This document shows, in pieces, positions 2,499 through 15,185 of a DNA stretch of 64,000 bases. The notes under the pieces were generated by a model that worked only from the letters and a program-made list of their open reading frames with translations, had not been told where the DNA came from and did no database searches. The DNA is from Podarcis cretensis (taxonomy: Eukaryota), in the NCBI GenBank assembly GCA_951804945.1, contig OX638159.1:45880001-45944000 (forward strand). The letters are read 5' to 3'. A program made the translations under genes and the position numbers. The first letter of the stretch is position 1. The number at the start of each line of letters is the position of its first letter.

Positions 2499-5295
2499 TA
2501 TTTATAGTCACCTTGATGAGAACCGCTAAAGTAGGATCATTCTTACAAGGAATCATTGGGGGAGGGGGTAATAAACAGGCATTTGAAAGGAGTGGTGTAG
2601 TAGATTCTGTAGATAAAAGAAGATGGACTAAAGCTCTGAGGTGGTAAAATCCAGAGGCACAGCATGTTCAGTAAAAACTTTGGGAGAAATGTCTCCCCGC
2701 TCAAAAGTCTGCTTACACCGGATGTGGAATGCAGCTGCATGTTTTCTAATAACCAGGATGTTAGGAAGGTTCTTTCTGTGTGTGTGAAATGAAGGCTGTT
2801 AAATGGATGCAACAGGGTGATTATGTAATGCTATCTCTATCCCCATCCCAGCTCCTCTTATGAGAAAGCAATCCTGGATTTGTTCCCCCACCCCAAAAAG
2901 GTTTACTAGCAATTTAATAAAAGGGACTGTTTCACAAGTTATTTTAATTTTAAACATATGCAACTTAATGAATCACTCCACTCTTTTACATACAACGCTG
3001 AAAATAAGTTTCAGCTTGTATGACTATGTGGCCAGGTTCCTTTAGGGCAATGCATGTGACGGTGAAGGGTCTGAAATCTGGTGAATGCCAGGCATCCCAA
3101 ATAAATAATTGTAAATGTCTGAAATGTCAGGGATACACTGGTGCACATATTGTAGACCCTCATTTAATAGTGACTGTCTCTTTCAAATGCCCCCAAAGTG
3201 GGATAATTGGGGTCCTTCACAAAATTCCCCTGGGATTGTCAGCATGTCAACATTCACCAAATTTTGGACATCCAGTGAAATACATAACGTATAATTGTCA
3301 GGGGTCCCTTTACCTTTACCTTTACCTAATCTGCAGCAACTAGTGTCCTGTTAAGGGTAAAGCAACTTAGTGATCCTATATTTTCTGCCAAGCTGAGTCA
3401 ATGTCTTCAGGATTGTATCCTCCTGATGAGCATTTCCCATCAATCAAGAAGATAAAATCCTTGCAGGCAACAGATGCTGATTCTTAAACAGCTTAGATGC
3501 TCAGACCACATCAGAAATGTCAAGAAAAGCCCTTTTGAACTTTATTTATTGTCGTCAAAACGAAATTCACCTTTCATCTCCCTTAACATCATATCCTTTT
3601 CTGTAAATTTCTTAAACTGCTGCACCTGCTTCAGTAGGCTTTTAATTGGGATTTTTATGACTTTTATATTTGATGTCCAAATTCCACTATAACAGATGAA
3701 TATCACCAGACTAGATGTGCAATTAAGGTAAACAGCTGAAGGAGATTATATATTATACCAGAAAACTGTATTTTACTTATATAAGTTTCAGATTTATTTG
3801 TTTATTGCAGTTATGATCATTCAGTTTATCATTCCTAGACCAGCATCTCAATCTGAAAGTTGTAGGGTTTACGGTAGCTAGCAAAATTAGAAACAAAATC
3901 TATTTTCTAATGTGATCTATGGGATGAAAGACAGCCACACCTAACAGTCTGATCCTTAGCTTATCCTAGCATAACTTCCACTGAGTTCAGTGGGGCTGAT
4001 ATACAAATGAGTATTCACCGTACTGCAAACTTAATTCCATAATTAAGGGACTTAGTTAATAATTTATAAGTTTTGATGTCTCCATACATACAGAGAAATT
4101 GGTTTTTGCATATATAGTAGTTAGGAATACACAAATCAGTCTATTTGTGAACTGTGTCAATTTCCCAAATTCATTCTGTCACAATTTCCTCATTAATCTA
4201 TAGATATTTTTTTAAAGTACTTAAATACACGTTTAATTAATGTACAGACATCTGAATGTACACACTTCTAAATATATTTTATTTAATATACACACTTCTA
4301 TGCCTTTGGGGATATACTTTGAGCTGACAACCAGAACACAAAACTCAGAGAGGGCTATTACATTCTGACTTGTACATAAGTCTGGGAGGTGAAAAACAAG
4401 TCAGTTCCCTTTCAAAATGCAATCAAAGTGAAATGTTTATTCATTCCTAAAAAGTAGTTCAACTTGGGTGAGGTGCCACATGAATGAGCAGAGAACTGTT
4501 TATTAAAGATGGAGGACACCAGGTTGGGGAAGGTTGATCTAATCCAATGTTTGTAGAATGCTCCCCCAAGGGAGTAATCATCCGACTGTGACACTTGGCA
4601 TTGGATAGTCACTAGCACCAATGAAATTACTAGCAAGGTCAACAGGTGCAGGCAGTTGTGAACCCCACCTTTAAAACTGAACAATTTCCTCATTCACTTT
4701 ATTTAATAACCCAGATTGATTGACTGTGCAACCTTTGCATTTTCTCCACCAATATTTATCTTCTCTTCCACAATATTCCTATCCTACACAAAAATGTAAA
4801 CTAGCTGCAACACTGTTAACTACATTCGGAAATAAGTTATAACCCTGTGATGAAGAGTTGCAGGATTTGGACCTCTGATAAGTCTTTAAAATCTTTTTAT
4901 TCCCTGCTTCAGTAAAAAAAAATTGATGCTGTCAAAACAAAGAGCAGATTAAGCTATAAAAGTCTGGAATGCACAGTAGGCATGAGGTTTTAGGAGTTAC
5001 AGATATTGTGCATTGAACAGCTGATACATGGATCTATCAAAAAGTTAAATATTTACAGAATAATTTATTTGGGTATATTAAAGGCTTAATCATTTCTGGA
5101 AGGATCTTCCTAACCAAAGAAAGACGATAATGCTAGACATGGACAATCATTGACAAAAAAATGAATTTTGTTATGTAACTATTGCATCTCTGTGTAGAGC
5201 ACTAGGGTCCAAGATTCATTCTGCAACAAACATACTTCAGGGAAGAGCTGTAGCTCAGCGGTAGAGAATCTGTTTTGCATGCAGAAGGTCTCCTT

Positions 5296-5659: not shown

Positions 5660-6347
5660 TTAAATAAGTTAGAGTTCTTGTTATTAAATATTCCAAGAAA
5701 AAAGCACACCAAGAACTCAGGCCAATGTAAGTTTCAATAGACTATGGACTAACATGAACCTACTGGTTTCTGTTCCATAATTGACTTCTGACTTCTGCTT
5801 AATGATTGAAACTAAGACCTCCACGTCGAATCTGACTATGGAATAGCATGAACTTATCTCTACTCACAAACTCTTACAGTGGTACCTCGGGTTAAGTACT
5901 TAATTCATTCCTGAGGTCCGTACTTAACATGAAACTGTTCTTAACCTGAAGCACCACTTTAGCTAATGGGGCCTCCAACTGCTGCCGCGCCGCCGGAGCA
6001 CGATTTCTGTTCTCATCCTGAAGTAAAGTTCTTAACTTGAAGCACTATTTCTGGGTTAGCAGAGTCTGTAACCTGAAGTGTATGTAACCTGAAGCGTATG
6101 TAACCGGAGGTACCACTGTATTTCTAATTCTGTAACCAATTATTGTGTTATACGTATCTTTATGAGTTTGAGTTTATAATCTCTGTTAGAGTTTATAAAC
6201 TCTATTTGAGTGTGTAATCCTTGTCAGAATACATACTTTTGAATGGATTAGTTTTTGTTACTATTGACTAGTGATTTGCGAGTAGGGACAACTCTCACTA
6301 TTGAAACCTACATTGGCCTGAGTTCTTGGTGTGCTTTTTTCTTGGTA
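5660..6347. mobile_element. Unclassified insertion with asymmetric 48-bp inverted repeats and 15-bp TSD (possibly Penelope-like)
   Basis: TSD TAGATAAGACCAGTG (5645-5659, 6348-6362). IR 5693-5740 / 6298-6345 with one mismatch. Confidence 0.7.
5877..6118. mobile_element. MITE family A copy
   Basis: Same TIRs and TA TSD as 2257-2498. Confidence 0.9.
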
Positions 6348-7733: not shown

Positions 7734-10081
7734 CTTCCCTCAAAGAATCCTGGAAACTGCACTTGCTTGGAGTTCCCTATCTTGCACACAGAGCTACAGT
7801 TTACCAAGTGGCTTAATCATTCCCTCTTCCTAGGGAGCTCTGGGAATTGTAGCTCCTCTTCCAGATCCCGCTTGCTCATGTGCATGTGCTAAACCTTGGT
7901 TTGGCTTACTGTGACACGTGAACCAAGCCAGTATGTGCATTCCTATCATGAAAACCCATCTAACATGAAAAGTATGCATCTTTGGTCAATTGTGCCTGCT
8001 TTATACCATGCTTTTTAAGAGCAAGTAGAGAAGTGCAAGGTTGTTCACTTTCGATTCATGGGATGGCTGTTTCCACTAGACCTACCTCTAAACCAACATA
8101 GAAAGTGTCCAGGTATTATTCGACTCTAGCTCCCATCAGCCTCAGCCAGCATGGCCAATGGTCAGGGGTGAAGGGAGTTTTAGTTCAGCAGCATCTGAAG
8201 GCAACTATGTTGACTACCACTGATCTTAACAGTCTTCTCTGTTTTAGGTTGGGAAAGCTAAAGTGATTTTGTTGATGCAACTATCAGGAATAGTGTTTTA
8301 TCTAATGTTCCTTTTTGTCTGGACTCAACAGGGTAATGTGCAGTCAAATTTGCATATAGTTAAACTCCAGGCAACAGGGCTGCAGGACACAAATGTATCT
8401 GTCAAAAGTTAATGAGCATCTGTTTACTATACTTGGGCTGCAGTGTTAAAAACATAAATTTAACTCAGCTCCCCCCCCCCCAAGTAAATATGCCTGCTTT
8501 GAACATGAAGGGGTTACCTGCAGACAAAAACAAAACAAAACAAAACAAAAAACCGTAACTTGAATATATAGAGAGACTAAAGCTGATCCCTGTAATTTAG
8601 CTCTTTTGTAGTACAGCAGTCTAAAGAAACAGATAGCTTAGTTGTTTCAGATGTTAGACTTCAATGAGCCAGGATGGATTTCTTTTAAGATGGCACCAAT
8701 TTTTATCTAATTTATTGGCTTTGTAGTCTTTATGAGTTTGCTTTCTTAATGTCAACAATTAAAGAGGGATTCACACTCATTTAGTGGTCACCTTCTTCTT
8801 TTTGGAGTCCATATATTCTTTTATATTTAATTCCCATGTGGATTATTGGTGTGTCTTTAAAAAATAATAATAATCACCTGTCTCACATGCTTCAGGGCCA
8901 GCTTTCAAGATTTAGTAACCACAAGTACAATACCTGAATATCATCTAAAGTTGATGAATAATGACAAGCTAGCTATATGGCTGGCTTCCTATGTGGCAAA
9001 GGAACTGCAGTGGCAGCAATGAGTTATTACAGGACACGAGAACCATTGCAAGAGAATCTATGAAGTGTCAAGCCTGCACTCTTCAGACAAGGGATCATTG
9101 CTCTGTAGTACAGACAGGATAGTGGAGAAATTAACTTCAGTTCACATTTAAAGACAAATTGACCTATTTTGCCATTTCTCTATCTATTTTCTCCATGCCA
9201 TGCATAATTTCATAAATTTCTACCATGTCACCTCTTATTGCCTTTTCTCTGAACTAAAAAGTCCCCATTACTGCAAACTTTTCTTGAAGAAGAGTCATAG
9301 CAAAAGGCAGAATAAACCCTCATAACAGGGCATCTGGGGGGCAGGATTGGGCTGCGCCAATGTAAGATCCACGGGATCCTGGACAGATCCTGCTGCCCTA
9401 AAATGATGGCATTGGGCTCAATTCGGACCTCTTTGCTATGCGTGCCCCTACAACTTCCATCATGGATGGCGCAAGTGTTAGTGCTCTGCATGCAGTGCTG
9501 GCTGTGCCACTTCATTAACTCCTGCCACAGACAGACAGGGGTAAGGATTGCACCCTAAGCCAATATGGCTCTCCTACTACCACTCTGTGTGCAGTACTGG
9601 TCAAATGGAGGCCACATTCACTCCATACATGTAAAACACTGTGATACCAAGAGTCATGGCTTCCTCTAAAGAATTCTGGGAGTTGTTGTTTTTTGCAGGG
9701 ATTAATGGGTTACTGCCTTTGGTTTGATTTTGTATGTTGTGGTCTTGTTGTGAACCGTCCTGAGACCTCTGTGTATAGGGAAGTGTATAAGTTGAATTAA
9801 TAAAACAAAAAATAAAATGGGGGTGTGGAGAGTTGTTAAGGGAATCCTATTCGCTTCCCAGAGCTACAGTTCCCAGAATAGGGAACTATGGGGTCTCCTA
9901 ACAACTCAGAACGCTTAACAAACCACAGCTCCCAGAATTCTTTGGTGGAAGCAATGATTGTTTATGGGACACAGGTGGCGCTGTGGGTTAAACCACAGAG
10001 CCTAGGACTTGCCGATCAGAAGGTCGGTGGTTCGAATCCCTGTGACGGGGTGAGCTCCCGTTGCTCGGTCCCTGCTCCTGC

Positions 10082-10785
10082 CAAAGCCACTCCCGATCTG
10101 GAGAGGGGGTGGGGTTGCGGGCTCACGACCCATCAGCAATCTCGTGGGGCTGGCATCAGCCCCGCGAGTAGCAGGGATTCCCCTAAACTCATTAGTATTC
10201 ACCGCCCTCAGCGGCAGCCAATCGGCTGCCGCTGGGGGCGGGACCTCAGGGATCATTTAAGGTCGGGGCAGCCCTGGCTCGCCCCTTTCGTCTCCGCAGC
10301 AGGCGACGCCCCCCGGAGTCCTTTAACGAACTACCCTTCAAGCTTTGGGGGAGGTGATAGCGTTCCTCCCCCCCCAACCTCATTTCCATAACAATACCCC
10401 TGCCAATGCCTAACCGCCAAAACCAGGAGTTGTGACGTTTTGCTACAAGGTAGGCGAAAAAACCAAGTGGCTATCAAATACAGCCAATTAAGCCAAATGG
10501 AAAAACTCCTACCCGGCCCCATGCGGCGACCAGCCGAAGCCCATAGCAAAGTCCAAATGCAGGCCTAAAGGGCGGGTGGGCGGGAAACCGCTGCTGCTGC
10601 GGAGACGAAAGGGGCGAGCCAGGGCTGCCCCGACCTTAAATGATCCCTGAGGTCCCGCCCCCAGCGGCAGCCGATTGAGTTTAGGGGAATCCCTGCTACT
10701 CGCGGGGCTGACGCCAGCCCCGCGAGATTGCTGATGGGTCGTGAGCCCGCAACCCCACCCCCTCTCCAGATCGGGAGTGGCTTTG
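10082..10785. repeat. Inverted repeat pair from the Ngaro A-type repeat (10082-10302 vs 10594-10785)
   Basis: Near-identical reverse complements. The left arm has 29 extra bp (10191-10219). Confidence 0.95.
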
Positions 10786-11200
10786 CGTGGCGATACCCTC
10801 CCCATCCCAAGAAGAACTAAATAAAGACACCGGACACCAAATTTAAGGTTAATGGGCGAAAATGGCCACAACTTTATTGATTACAGGTAAGAGCGGTATT
10901 GGCTTTAGGCATTGGCCCTACCAGACTATCCGGTCTAACCGGGAAGGGTTAAGCACCAGCCGGGAGAGCCCCCGAGATGCACATCCCTGGGCGCTCCCCA
11001 GGGGGTTACCGCTTGGGAGCGCGCTTTAGGCCCTAGCCTCCGTAGGTTTCGGACGAGGCAACGCCCCCCGGAGTCCTTTAACGAACTACCCTTCAAGCTT
11101 TGGGGGAGGTGATGGCGTTCCTCCCCCCCAACCTCATTTCCATAACAATACCCCTGCCAATGCCTAACCGCCACACGATCCAGGCTCGCCGCCAATACCC

Positions 11201-11775
11201 TCAAACCTGTAACCAATCCCTGATCCCATTAAAAATTTCGGCCAGCCACACATCATTACCATCATCAGAAAGATGCACGCCATCCCCGCGGTAGAGTGCC
11301 ACGCTGCTATAATGGATGCCAGGGTGTTCGATGACACTCCCCCCCATCGCAGTCACTCTACGTGCCACCGAGCGCTCAAGGATCCTCCTGGCTCTATTTA
11401 CCGCCACAGGGTTGGTGGCACCCCGCCAACAGTGCCTCACCAGCAAAGATGACCATATAATTGTAAGTTTTGGACAGGCGACCCGCAATGCCTCTAGGTC
11501 ATTGATAATATGCCACATAACGTCCACCCCCTTCCTGTAGGCCAGGTCATTCTCGCCCAGCTGGATGACCAGCGCCTCGGGTGGGCCCAGTATTGCCAGT
11601 TTATTCGATAACGTTGGGAGGAATTCCTCCCAGCGCATTCCGCGACGAGCGAACCAGGAGATTTTAACATTATTAGGGAGCTGCAGATCATGACAGCCAC
11701 CTCTGCTAAGCGCCCGCCGTCTTGCCCAGTAGACGATGCTATGACCGAGGATCCATAGGCGCACCACACCAACAC
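11201..11775 (-). CDS. SGNH/GDSL-type hydrolase (esterase) carried by the Ngaro element
   Basis: Block I WILGHSIV, block II RGMRW, block III QLGENDL, block V DGVHLS. Frame is open and preceded by a polypyrimidine-CAG acceptor at 11776-11800. Confidence 0.88.
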
Positions 11776-11844
11776 CTGGAAAGATAAGAAAGCAGGAGAG
11801 CCGGATCAGGGAGGGGTGCAAATGGGGGAGGAAAACAACGGGGT

Positions 11845-12723
11845 TTAACGTGATTTCCTTATGTAGCCCTTGTAGGCATTAGACTTCCATCTCCTCATGT
11901 CCATTATCCTTTCGGCCGGTAAGCCCATATGAGCAGCCGTGGTAGCAGCCCCAATGCGGAACGAGTGCGCGGCATAAGCCCTCGCTGGGAGCCCGATGGC
12001 ATCGATCGCCTTGCGCATCACCCCCGTGAACTGGTGTTTTGTAAGGGGGGAGCCATCAGCGTGTATGAAGAAGGAGCCAGGCGTTTTTTGCCTTAGGTTA
12101 AGGAACTTCCTGGCGTCCTTAACAGGGCATGGACCAGCCCTACCAGTAGCCTGCAGACGGACCAAAGCGCCTCTGCCAAGTTGGTCGGTCTTTGAGCTGC
12201 GGATTTTTAGTACAACCTCAGAACTGGACAATGACACATCCTCCAAGAGGAGCCCCCTAATGACGGTAAGCAGGTGGTTGTCGCAAACCACCTCACCTAT
12301 GCGTAGTGCGCTGAAGAAAGCGAAGGAAAATGCTGAAGAGAATAACCTGGTCTCATATCTGGACCAGCAGATGACTCTGAGCTCAGAACGTAATTGCATG
12401 AGAATGTCAAAAGTTATGGGTCTTCTGCTATCTCTAATAGGGGGGTGGGATCTTCGCCACCCCTCTAGCATTTTCCGCACCATGAAGTGTGCACAGGGGT
12501 CGACTGAGAACAGGGCTTTGGAGAAGAACGATATCGCTGCCGAGTGAATGTTAAGGGTTTTGGGGTCCCCGCCTAGGTCGTGAAGACGCACCAGGTACTC
12601 GATAACCTCTGACTTTGACGGGGGCTTGCCCGGTTTAAACCAATCTTTTTTCTGTCTAAACAGAGTGAAATCTAACCACGCCTTGTTGTAGGATCTTAGT
12701 GTAGAGGGTGCAACTGATGACAA
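11845..12723 (-). CDS. Ngaro tyrosine recombinase
   Basis: Catalytic set present: FSALRIGE (R), SKTDQ (K), HSFRIGAAT (HxxR), RWKSNAYKGYIR (W, Y). No ATG at the start (TTG). In-frame TGA just upstream at 12742-12744. Confidence 0.95.
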   Translation of the reverse strand: MSSVAPSTLRSYNKAWLDFTLFRQKKDWFKPGKPPSKSEVIEYLVRLHDLGGDPKTLNIHSAAISFFSKALFSVDPCAHFMVRKMLEGWRRSHPPIRDSRRPITFDILMQLRSELRVICWSRYETRLFSSAFSFAFFSALRIGEVVCDNHLLTVIRGLLLEDVSLSSSEVVLKIRSSKTDQLGRGALVRLQATGRAGPCPVKDARKFLNLRQKTPGSFFIHADGSPLTKHQFTGVMRKAIDAIGLPARAYAAHSFRIGAATTAAHMGLPAERIMDMRRWKSNAYKGYIRKSR

Positions 12724-12731
12724 TACTCCCT

Positions 12732-14314
12732 TTATTGCTTCTCATTGCCAATACTCCAGAGGTGTTCCGGAAACGGCTGCGGCAGCTGCTGCGCATCCGG
12801 CACCAATGAGCGAAACCGTTCCATCTGGAAACGAGACAGCGCATCCGCAATGTTGTTATCAATACCCGGTACAAATTTAGCAGAAGCATGTAAGTTAAGG
12901 CGAAGACAGGAGAGGACAAAGTATCGCAAGAGTGACGCCACTCTAGGGGAGCGAGCGGATTGCTTATTTAATACTGACACCACGGCCTGGTTGTCTGTCC
13001 AAAAGCAGATCCTCCGATCCTTAAACTGCTCTGCCCAGAGATGGATTGCGACCACGATAGGGAAGAATTCTAAGAATGTCAGGTCGCGAAGAATGGGCTT
13101 TCCCTGCCATGAAGAAGGCCAGCGCTGTGCGCACCATTGACCCCTGAAGTAGACGCCGAAGCCCAAAGACCCAGCTGCATCCGAATGTACCTGGAAGTCT
13201 GCACGCAGGGCCAAACTGTCTTGCCATAGTGAAATCCCATTGTAACCGTTTAAAAATTGGAGCCAAACTTGGAGATCGGATTTAACTGCTCTTGAAAGGC
13301 ACACCCTATGATGTGGCGACCTTAGACCTGCGGAGAGTTTAGCCAAACGACCACAAAAAGGCCTGCCAGGGGAAACTACCCGACAGGCGAAGTTGAGGTG
13401 ACCCAGGAGCGATTGGATTTGCCTTAGGGTCACCTTCTTTAGGGGCAGAAGCTGAGAGATGAGCTCTCTTAGGGCAATCAGCTTTTCGGCAGGTAAGCGG
13501 GAAGTTTGAGCGATAGTGTCAAGTTCAATGCCCAGGTAAGTCATCGTGGTAACCGGGCCCTCCGTCTTCTCCTCAGCTAACGGGACACCCAGTTCGTCGG
13601 CCAAGGACTTAAAGGCCTGCAGCAAGGCGTCACAATCATGTGCATTATTTGCTACCAAAATAAAGTCGTCCAAATAATTCCCCACCCCTTCGGAACCAGT
13701 TTTAAATTTTAGAGCCCATTCAAGGAAGGTGCTGAAGGTCTCAAAGGCAGCACAAGCGATCGAGCACCCCATGGGCATTGCTTTATCAATAAAATAGGAC
13801 CCCTGGAATTTAAACCCCAGCCAGCGATAATCCTCCGGGTGAACTGGAAGGAGGCGAAAGGCAGATTCAATGTCGCATTTCGCCATGAAGGCGCCCCTGC
13901 CAAAACCCCTGACCAACTTCACGGCTTGATCAAAAGAAGCGTACTTCACCATGCAGAGCTCCTGAGGGATAGCATCATTAACCGAGGTGCCCTTGGGGAA
14001 GGACAGGTTGTGTATTAGCCGGAATTCGCCAGGAGCCTTTTTTGGAACAATGCCCAGCGGTGAAATATGGAGCTGATCTATGGGAGGGGTTGTGAATGGG
14101 CCAGCAACCCTACCCGCCAAGATTTCCTTCTGGATCTTTTTTAAAGCAATGCCTGGTCTCTCTAAGACTGATTTTTGGTTAGGGGGGCAGCTAGAGTTGG
14201 GAGTGAATGCAACCGGAATTCTGAACCCTGAAGAAAACCCTTCCCCTAGAAGAAGGGCGGCCTGCTTATTGGGATATAATTGCAAAAGGGATCTCAAGGG
14301 TGGGAGTTTAATTG
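12732..14314 (-). CDS. Ngaro reverse transcriptase / RNase H (N-terminally truncated, frame open)
   Basis: Motifs ISPLGIVPKK, FRLIHNLS, KCDIESAFR, MPMGC, YLDDF; RNase H SDAAGSLGFG, LEFFPI, WTDN, NNIADALSR. Residues upstream of 14314 in the ORF track come from SINE/LTR sequence. Confidence 0.95.
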
Positions 14315-14360
14315 GTTGCTCGGTCCCTGCTCCTGCCAACCTAGCAGTTCGAAAACACGT

Positions 14361-15185
14361 TGTCAGAGCTGCCCGAGGTCCCAGCTCACAAAGGACCAAC
14401 GCCAGTTCGTTGTTATATACAAAAGTCTTTATTTAAGTTCAGTTTCGATTTCAAAAGCCGCGGCGCGCAGCTCTACATCTCAAACTCTAGACCGCTGAAG
14501 CTCCATCTGAATCTCCTCCCCCCAGACACCAGTTTAAGACTCTAGCCTTGCTCCACCTCTTCCTTTGCTCTTTCCTCCTCTGGGTCCGCCTGTCCGCTGG
14601 GGTCTTGCCCTTTCTAGACTCTTCTGACGCTGAGTCCCCTGAGTCTTCCCCCTCCCTCCGGCGGGCTTTAGGACCTGGTTCCCAATCCGGGTTTTCTGCC
14701 GTCCCGCGCGCCTGTACATTCAAACTTGGCGCGCGCGCCCAGCCGGCAACCTTTCTCCTGACCGTTACACTGCTCCTGTCACTGCTTCCCCCTTCGGGGA
14801 GGCTAGCTGGACCTGACTTCCCCTCCGTTCCCTCACTCTCCGATAGAGGCGTGGTCAGTCCTGACTCATCTTCTCTCCCTGCTGGAGGAGACGCTGGCCC
14901 TGATACATGGGACTCTTCCCCCCACTACGCTCTGGTGGGGGAGCTGGTCCTGATCTCCCGCTGCTGCTTTGGGAGTCCCCGCTGGCCCCTTGCTTCTGGT
15001 GCATCTCCCCTGGGACCCCCCTTGCCCTGGCCCTCGGCGCCCCCCTCTGGGAATCTTCTGATTCGCTGGAGAAGCTCATGGAATCTCTCGTGCCACTGTC
15101 ATACTCCCCTACGCTGCCCTCAGATTCTTCCCCTTCGCTCTCCATTTCCTCTCTCCCCTGTGCCTCTGCTCCTGAGCCCCTGACA
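14361..15185 (-). mobile_element. Solo LTR (825 bp), family undetermined
   Basis: Termini TGTCAG...CTGACA, perfect 5-bp TSD CACGT (14356-14360, 15186-15190), AATAAA on the minus strand near 14428-14433. Cleanly interrupts a Sauria SINE. Confidence 0.9.

Follow-up and report, generated by a model that had tools for sequence, protein, structure and literature searches.

Ngaro-like retrotransposons (order DIRS) with a tyrosine recombinase (YR) comprise, in the amphibian type, a gag-like ORF followed by RT/RNase H, YR and an SGNH hydrolase; they have split repeats in the arrangement A1...B1 A2 B2 and a short -1 overlap between RT and YR (PMC9210276, which outlines the layout with the hydrolase for Xenopus). 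The element reported here has the same organisation. The accessible portions of PMC9210276 and PMC3783388 contain no mention of introns or splicing, and a 2026 paper still invokes frameshifting for the Ngaro recombinase (PMC13003380). Whereas the literature proposes a frameshift for YR, both YR and the hydrolase look here like spliced Gag fusions, and the candidate frameshift is at the gag-RT junction.

Retroviruses and gypsy-type elements express env from subgenomic mRNAs, in which one donor is joined to alternative downstream acceptors. As in those systems, a weak donor would leave unspliced RNA here as the genome and as the Gag and Gag-Pol type of message; the element differs in that gag is read for about 210 codons before the donor, which would give large Gag fusions, and in that the spliced products would include the integrating enzyme. 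Goodwin and Poulter are said to have described spliceosomal introns in some YR retrotransposons in 2004. Protein amounts are set by alternative splicing also in plant Ty1/Copia, by means of a short-GAG subgenomic RNA (PMC5580714); splicing there yields Gag alone through early termination, whereas here it would skip RT to reach the downstream enzymes. UUU_CGN, read in the upstream frame and followed by a downstream frame at +1, is the frameshift motif of influenza PA-X and of amalgaviruses (PMC5052127 and PMC5009743, both in part) and recurs here as a candidate, with the differences that it stands in the gag-RT overlap of a retrotransposon and mostly reads CCC_UUU_CGN. The first 300,000 characters of PMC5009743 do not mention DIRS or Ngaro, and full-text literature searches, at the level of titles and abstract openings, turned up neither a published account of splicing to the Ngaro YR or hydrolase nor one of a +1 shift between Ngaro gag and RT.

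The window, i.e. the whole stretch of DNA that was analysed, comprises 64,000 nucleotides of Podarcis cretensis (contig OX638159.1, positions 45,880,001 to 45,944,000). An element on its minus strand extends from about 14314 to 10085 and contains, in this order, RT/RNase H, YR, an SGNH-like hydrolase, B1, A2, part of B2 and an inverted piece of A (Table 1). It is a dead, 5'-truncated copy of a Ngaro-type retrotransposon that has lost gag and the donor: its 5' break is located just inside the RT start, and it is colinear with full-length copies from position 4185 of locus L038. Full-length relatives consist of A1, a 1.8-kb leader, gag (500 aa, with its own ATG and a weak CCCH finger match), RT, YR, hydrolase, B1, A2 and B2; the A and B repeat pairs are 100% identical in L038 and L046. 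The assignment to the Ngaro type is based on ORF order (RT/RNase H before YR, and a gag-like first ORF in the relatives), frame overlap, the split repeats (A1-ORFs-B1 A2 B2) and motifs, the Pfam match of the hydrolase being weak. No methyltransferase follows RNase H, as the RT frame ends 30 codons past ADALSRFQ, and the SGNH hydrolase after YR marks the vertebrate type.

Table 1. Features of the Ngaro-type element and its flanks (positions in the window)
Feature	Position	Strand	Remarks
RT/RNase H frame	12732..14314	-	Pfam RVT_1 E 2e-13; 527 codons, YLDD at 213
YR splice acceptor (putative), pyrimidine stretch + CAG, phase 1	12825..12847	-	inside RNase H codons ADALSRFQ
Tyrosine recombinase exon, 326 codons incl. 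stop	11845..12824	-	Pfam Phage_integrase E 2e-4, below curated cut-off
In-frame stop, YR exon codon 27	12742..12744	-	this and one other aligned copy
Non-coding spacer with hydrolase acceptor (putative), phase 1	11776..11844	-	branch-point-like CTGAT 11809-11805, polypyrimidine tract, CAG
SGNH/GDSL-like hydrolase exon, 190 codons	11201..11775	-	Pfam Lipase_GDSL_2 E 0.007, below curated cut-off; GHS, GEND, DGVH motifs
Split direct repeat B1	10783..11173	-	AATAAA at 10878
Split direct repeat A2	10586..10784	-	repeat comparison
Repeat B2, beginning only (truncated)	10301..10419	-	repeat comparison
Repeat A piece, inverted; rearranged 3' end of window copy	10083..10302	+	repeat comparison
SINE-like target duplication, 25 bp, left copy	14315..14339	.	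flanks element
SINE-like target duplication, 25 bp, right copy	10060..10084	.	flanks element

The YR exon lies in the -1 frame relative to RT and overlaps its final 30 codons, and catalytic-type R, HSFR and Y motifs are all found. Its stop at codon 27 reflects decay of the window copy, because the position is a sense codon in 27 of the 29 aligned copies spanning it, and the window copy itself cannot make a YR product; the preliminary description had overlooked this stop.

Relatives were obtained by a DNA search of the same genome (43 matches listed, 40 of 129 candidates scored) and a protein search (best 150 of 1913 candidates scored), from which 79 stretches of 8.5-10 kb, picked by rank or odd structure, were taken for comparison. 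The closest named proteins among the matches listed are those of lacertid lizards; no relatives were found in viral contigs.

The preliminary description had placed a phase-1 splice acceptor at the head of each of the two downstream ORFs and had noted that neither begins with ATG; both points were verified directly on the minus strand of the window. At ...CTGTCTCGTTTCCAG|ATGG, with CAG at 12827-12825, entry in phase 1 opens the YR frame from 12824, and at ...CTTTCTTATCTTTCCAG|GTG, with CAG at 11778-11776, entry in the same phase opens the hydrolase frame from 11775. The frames reach their first ATG at YR codon 114 and hydrolase codon 46, the latter past the GHS motif at codon 10; the ATG immediately 3' of the YR acceptor belongs to the RT frame. 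When AGs are ranked by a simple pyrimidine score, the hydrolase acceptor comes first among the 238 of the element, and across the window 23 of 8917 AGs reach its score; taken alone, the YR acceptor does not stand out (score reached by 19/238 and 455/8917, respectively; top 5%). Since the latter also lies within conserved RNase H codons, the case for it depends on comparative tests.

Of 49 loci, 46 retain CAG at the YR acceptor, and the other three are decayed copies. After thinning of 43 loci at 90% identity to 29 lizard representatives (mean identity 70%), the Gln codon is CAG in 29/29, against a background usage of 47%, and the Ser codon is TCY in 29/29, against 0/15 control Ser columns; none of 9 control Gln columns is uniformly CAG, and invariance among the representatives is seen in 1 of 239 degenerate columns. 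The metagenome set (79 loci kept of 288 relatives, 59 of which cover the site) gave 39 representatives with a mean nucleotide identity of 51%, of which 36 have Gln at this position, encoded by CAG in 36/36 (usage 43%); a YR match lies in the phase-1 frame in 27/29, and an in-frame YR ATG occurs near codon 22 in 8/39. All these counts come from related copies and are not independent events, so that nominal probabilities overstate the case. The YR frame is shut 7-18 codons upstream of the acceptor in 48 of the 49 loci, and an in-frame Met ahead of the conserved YR core is found in 2/49. The YR-frame residue that begins at the G of CAG varies (D, V, G, E, A) while Gln is always CAG, and protein coding therefore fails to explain the CAG.

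These data bear directly on the frameshift of the literature, according to which a -1 ribosomal shift in the RT/YR overlap makes YR and the AG arises incidentally from the coding of RNase H. Poulter and Butler (2015) called such a shift "probable", as quoted in PMC13003380, and the overlap of about 30 codons in the -1 frame is indeed stop-free downstream of the acceptor in 46/49 loci. We nevertheless regard this explanation as very improbable, because a canonical -1 slippery heptamer (X_XXY_YYZ) is present in the overlap of 0/49 loci, the Gln codon stays CAG under a changing YR-frame residue, gene models enter YR at the AG (see below), and the hydrolase, which is preceded by a non-coding spacer, would be left unaccounted for.

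The hydrolase acceptor was compared in 58 loci with a hydrolase start (L031-L090), two of which are spliced copies and which include divergent families with 46-70% hydrolase identity. All 56 unspliced loci have a YAG in phase 1, exactly 20 nt before a conserved Trp codon, with at least 14 pyrimidines in 20, and a branch-like CT(A/G/T)A(C/T) is located 18-44 nt upstream in 53/58 loci. The remaining spacer is indel-rich and of variable length, and the first bases of the exon vary (GT, GC, GA, AA, CT, CC). The site thus shows the full U2-type set of branch motif, polypyrimidine tract and YAG; the YR acceptor combines a YAG with codons biased towards pyrimidines, but lacertid copies share no single branch motif there. 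Among distant relatives with a hydrolase, a phase-1 YAG stands 14-32 nt ahead of the GxS motif in 12/13, with an upstream in-frame ATG in 7. The conservation of both acceptors among relatives, proposed earlier as a check on the splicing hypothesis, is therefore borne out. ATGs at the head of the ORFs, whose presence in a consensus would have spoken against the hypothesis, are absent before the catalytic motifs in most loci and present in some families (in-frame hydrolase ATGs upstream of the acceptor, at scattered positions, in 17/58 loci, and between acceptor and GH motif in 11/58, mostly of one family).

Three phase-1 GT sites are prominent in gag of the full-length copies. The mid-gag donor, CAG|GTA after codon 210, follows closely on a cluster of basic residues, KRKAKKK, and an acidic stretch, deviates from the consensus at +4 and +5, and is kept in all 29 loci displayed, in one of them as TG|GTA. 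Of 20 representatives, 18 align at the column of its Gly codon and all of these use GGT, the other two carrying it at an offset of one or two codons, and 0/11 control Gly columns are uniformly GGT. A second site, CTG|GTAAG, is kept in the family of the window copy and absent from divergent families. A third, T|GTAAGT at codons 444-445, equals the mid-gag donor in invariance (TGT in 19/20, AAG in 20/20), and no splice partner was found for it. On L038, the mid-gag donor falls at 3288|3289, the two later ones at 3918 and 3987, and the acceptors of YR and hydrolase at 5676|5677 and 6719|6720. Together, these comparisons show conservation of the putative mid-gag donor and of both putative acceptors beyond coding need.

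The invariance of T|GTAAGT, which is also in phase 1, and the retention of CTG|GTAAG in the family of the window copy raise the question of whether the acceptors are used mainly with another 5' exon (a later gag donor, a non-coding leader from the 1.8-kb region, or host exons), the mid-gag donor being secondary. One gene model (P0001) does have host exons on the hydrolase, and an ATG just past the acceptor is found in some families. A non-coding leader would provide no start codon ahead of the catalytic motifs in most loci; joining the T| donor to the hydrolase exons of L071, L072 and L075, which begin with AA, would produce a stop codon; CTG|GTAAG is missing from divergent families; and only the mid-gag donor appears in intron-less copies and well-mapped models. 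We therefore consider a different main partner very unlikely and retain the mid-gag donor.

Splice-like deletions were found in the genomic copies themselves. Four of the 10 internal deletions longer than 100 nt among the fetched copies, a count that excludes A-joined truncations and small indels, are exact GT..AG cuts, against an expected share of 0.6% at random and 2.2% given microhomology. In L039 and L095, the deletion begins exactly at the mid-gag donor and ends at two different cryptic AGs in gag, whereas in L051 and L052, which belong to subfamilies about 80% alike, it runs from a donor in YR, called cryptic because it is not conserved, to the exact hydrolase acceptor. All four intron-less copies thus pair one main site with a cryptic site, and their products are out of frame. 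Searches with exact degenerate patterns of limited reach (positive counts of 31 and 30; one search without a positive count) detected no genomic copy that joins the mid-gag donor to YR or hydrolase; a single match was the normal acceptor of a divergent family and not a spliced copy. DNA copies of the main joins could be absent because the spliced RNAs are not packaged, as is the case for retroviral env mRNA, or are rare.

Microhomology of 3-5 nt is present at all four GT-AG cuts, as would be expected if the deletions were template switches and the sites not splice sites at all, with the gene models being ab initio artefacts and the ORFs being translated by reinitiation or from non-AUG starts. 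The rank of the YR acceptor, only among the top 5% of AGs, fits with such an account. It conflicts with the cross-family retention of branch motif, pyrimidine tract, YAG and phase within a spacer that is non-coding, with a synonymous invariance far above the controls, and with the cuts themselves, as GT..AG is expected in just 2.2% of microhomology deletions and two pairs of cuts have a common end point. We give this account hardly any credence, and splicing at the conserved sites is the reading followed below.

Public gene models contain both predicted joins. Five proteins longer than 334 aa match the hydrolase: two join the gag half to the hydrolase (XP_077790728.1 of P. muralis and XP_034965332.2), two run from YR into the hydrolase, and one is a chimera (P0001) in which host exons are spliced onto the hydrolase. 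Among 24 proteins longer than 523 aa that match YR, all 7 lacertid ones enter at the residue of the YR acceptor; the leader ends after a basic and an acidic or Ser-rich stretch in 4 of them, and the remaining 3 use other donors. Isoforms X1 and X2 of Zootoca LOC118082278 have 207 residues in common and then continue with D-GPLPL (YR) or E-KLVNIW (hydrolase); their leaders match gag weakly (27%, E ~1e-4), and the leader of XP_028586321.1 gave no match to gag. The P. raffonei model XP_053243402.1 maps to L073 with 87% and 96% identity, leaves at TCA G|GTACCT and resumes at TTTCAG|AT, i.e. at the mid-gag donor and the YR acceptor. Frog models show a similar D-G entry into YR at the protein level. 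An alternative-frame test on the protein models, which was loose and prone to chance hits, agrees for the lacertid models and one frog model.

RefSeq alternative isoforms are generally based on transcript alignments. The NCBI joins used here are annotation output, and the YR models with other donors, together with the 3 of 5 long hydrolase models that have other N-termini, show that the models are in part ab initio. Two read sets presumed to be RNA covered 2/30 and 1/30 bins, and none of the 15 joints listed (of 53) corresponds to the predicted joins.

The preliminary description had offered splicing as the way in which the downstream ORFs are translated, and this is supported for YR and hydrolase and does not extend to RT. 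A third phase-1 acceptor ahead of RT, convincing in 16 close copies, was rejected, since an AG in phase 1 is missing from both candidate positions in 8 of 32 loci and none of 7 lacertid RT models followed over their full length uses it. Near the end of gag, 30 of 32 loci have CCC_TTT_CG, and the RT frame is +1 to gag. The +1 frame is open from this motif to RT in 30/30 loci, compared with 20/30 over the same length upstream and 2/30 for the third frame, and CCC and TTT are invariant in 19/19 representatives. Distant relatives have TTTCG in the phase of gag in 24/42, versus 1 and 3 in the other phases. Both elements of the viral signal are thus found, a zero-frame UUU_CGN and a +1 frame open to the downstream ORF, and a Gag-RT/RNase H protein of about 1035 aa is probably made by +1 ribosomal frameshifting at CCC_UUU_CGN. 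Its rival is the reading of RT from an upstream ATG in the RT frame, which is present in 29/42 distant relatives and used by several models.

We conclude that intact relatives very probably splice one phase-1 donor in the middle of gag to either acceptor, as judged from the comparison of genomic copies and from gene models, which would give fusions of the Gag half with YR and with the hydrolase. The shared upstream leader of the preliminary description can be recognised in this donor, which is cut in L039 and L095 and which models join to both acceptors; it has to be amended in that the leader is coding. It consists of the N-terminal ~210 gag codons, and the products would therefore be Gag fusions. 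We infer that YR (~535 aa) and hydrolase (~400 aa) are made mainly from mRNAs with these two joins. In the proposed mechanism, unspliced RNA would serve as genome and as message for Gag (500 aa) and Gag-RT, and splicing at the weak mid-gag donor would fuse Gag(1-210) to either YR or hydrolase. The shared Gag half might take the two enzymes into nucleus or particle, a guess prompted by its basic KRKAKKK cluster. On balance, we favour the view that Ngaro elements across animals follow a hitherto undescribed programme of retroviral grade, with a +1 frameshift of PA-X type for Gag-RT and fusions from the mid-gag donor, in which the acceptor would be the reason for the conservation of Gln after ADALSR.

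If this is true, splicing replaces the published guess of a frameshift for Ngaro YR. The translation of AUG-less downstream ORFs in YR retrotransposons has been an open question, for which exact junctions are now proposed, and UUU_CGN gains a candidate case of +1 frameshifting beyond RNA viruses. The true proteins are likely to be Gag-half fusions and not the bare ORFs of repeat libraries, which matters for studies of the recombinase and of the unexplained hydrolase. Spliced Ngaro transcripts may account for many of the 'uncharacterized' RefSeq genes in lizards and frogs.

At the junction of gag and the reverse transcriptase (RT) frame, the full-length Ngaro reference copy (L038) and its homologues carry the motif CCC_TTT_CGN, which is also found in distant relatives. 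Among the copies compared its synonymous sites are invariant, and from this motif onward the RT frame, which lies at +1 relative to gag, is open. The motif is a candidate +1 frameshift site of the PA-X type. The GTAAGT site in the gag CCCH finger is near-invariant among families and matches a splice donor perfectly from +1 to +6; a search for its splice partner found none, and it may serve as a second donor or bind U1. The cryptic donor inside the tyrosine recombinase (YR) ORF used by two intron-less copies (L051 and L052) corresponds to window positions 12357-12360, where the window copy has no GT.

Features of the reference copy and of the window
Feature	Position	Remarks
5' region of full-length copy	L038:836-2657	1.8 kb
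T|GTAAGT	L038:3987-3993	gag CCCH finger, Cys-Lys codons
CCC_TTT_CGN	L038:4062-4070 and homologues	near gag end; not in window copy
Inverted piece of repeat A	window 10083-10302	end of truncated Ngaro copy
25-bp duplication	window 14315-14339 and 10060-10084	flanks truncated Ngaro copy
Solo-LTR-like insert	window 14361-15185	825 bp; TG...CA ends, ACGTG duplication, AATAAA at 14433

The SGNH hydrolase also follows the YR in distant metagenome relatives (13 distinct loci, L111-L181) and is therefore not confined to amphibians and lizards. In Lacerta agilis, one NCBI gene model for an immunoglobulin-superfamily protein (XP_033024283.1) contains the Ngaro hydrolase as an internal segment, which represents either exon capture or a modelling artefact.

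The flanking duplication and the inverted repeat A end suggest that the truncated window copy was inserted by repair and not by its own recombinase. The SINE-like repeat that was the target of this copy also holds the solo-LTR-like insert, roughly 20 bp away from the 25-bp duplication.

The 5' region of the reference copy is poorly conserved between subfamilies and contains AT-rich microsatellites, SINE insertions and repeated, YY1-like GCCGCCATTTT motifs. In L045, L053, L054, L065, L098, L099, L100 and L102, repeat A is fused directly to internal sequence at differing points; these are 5'-shortened copies that have regained the A end, and they are relevant to the model of reverse transcription.
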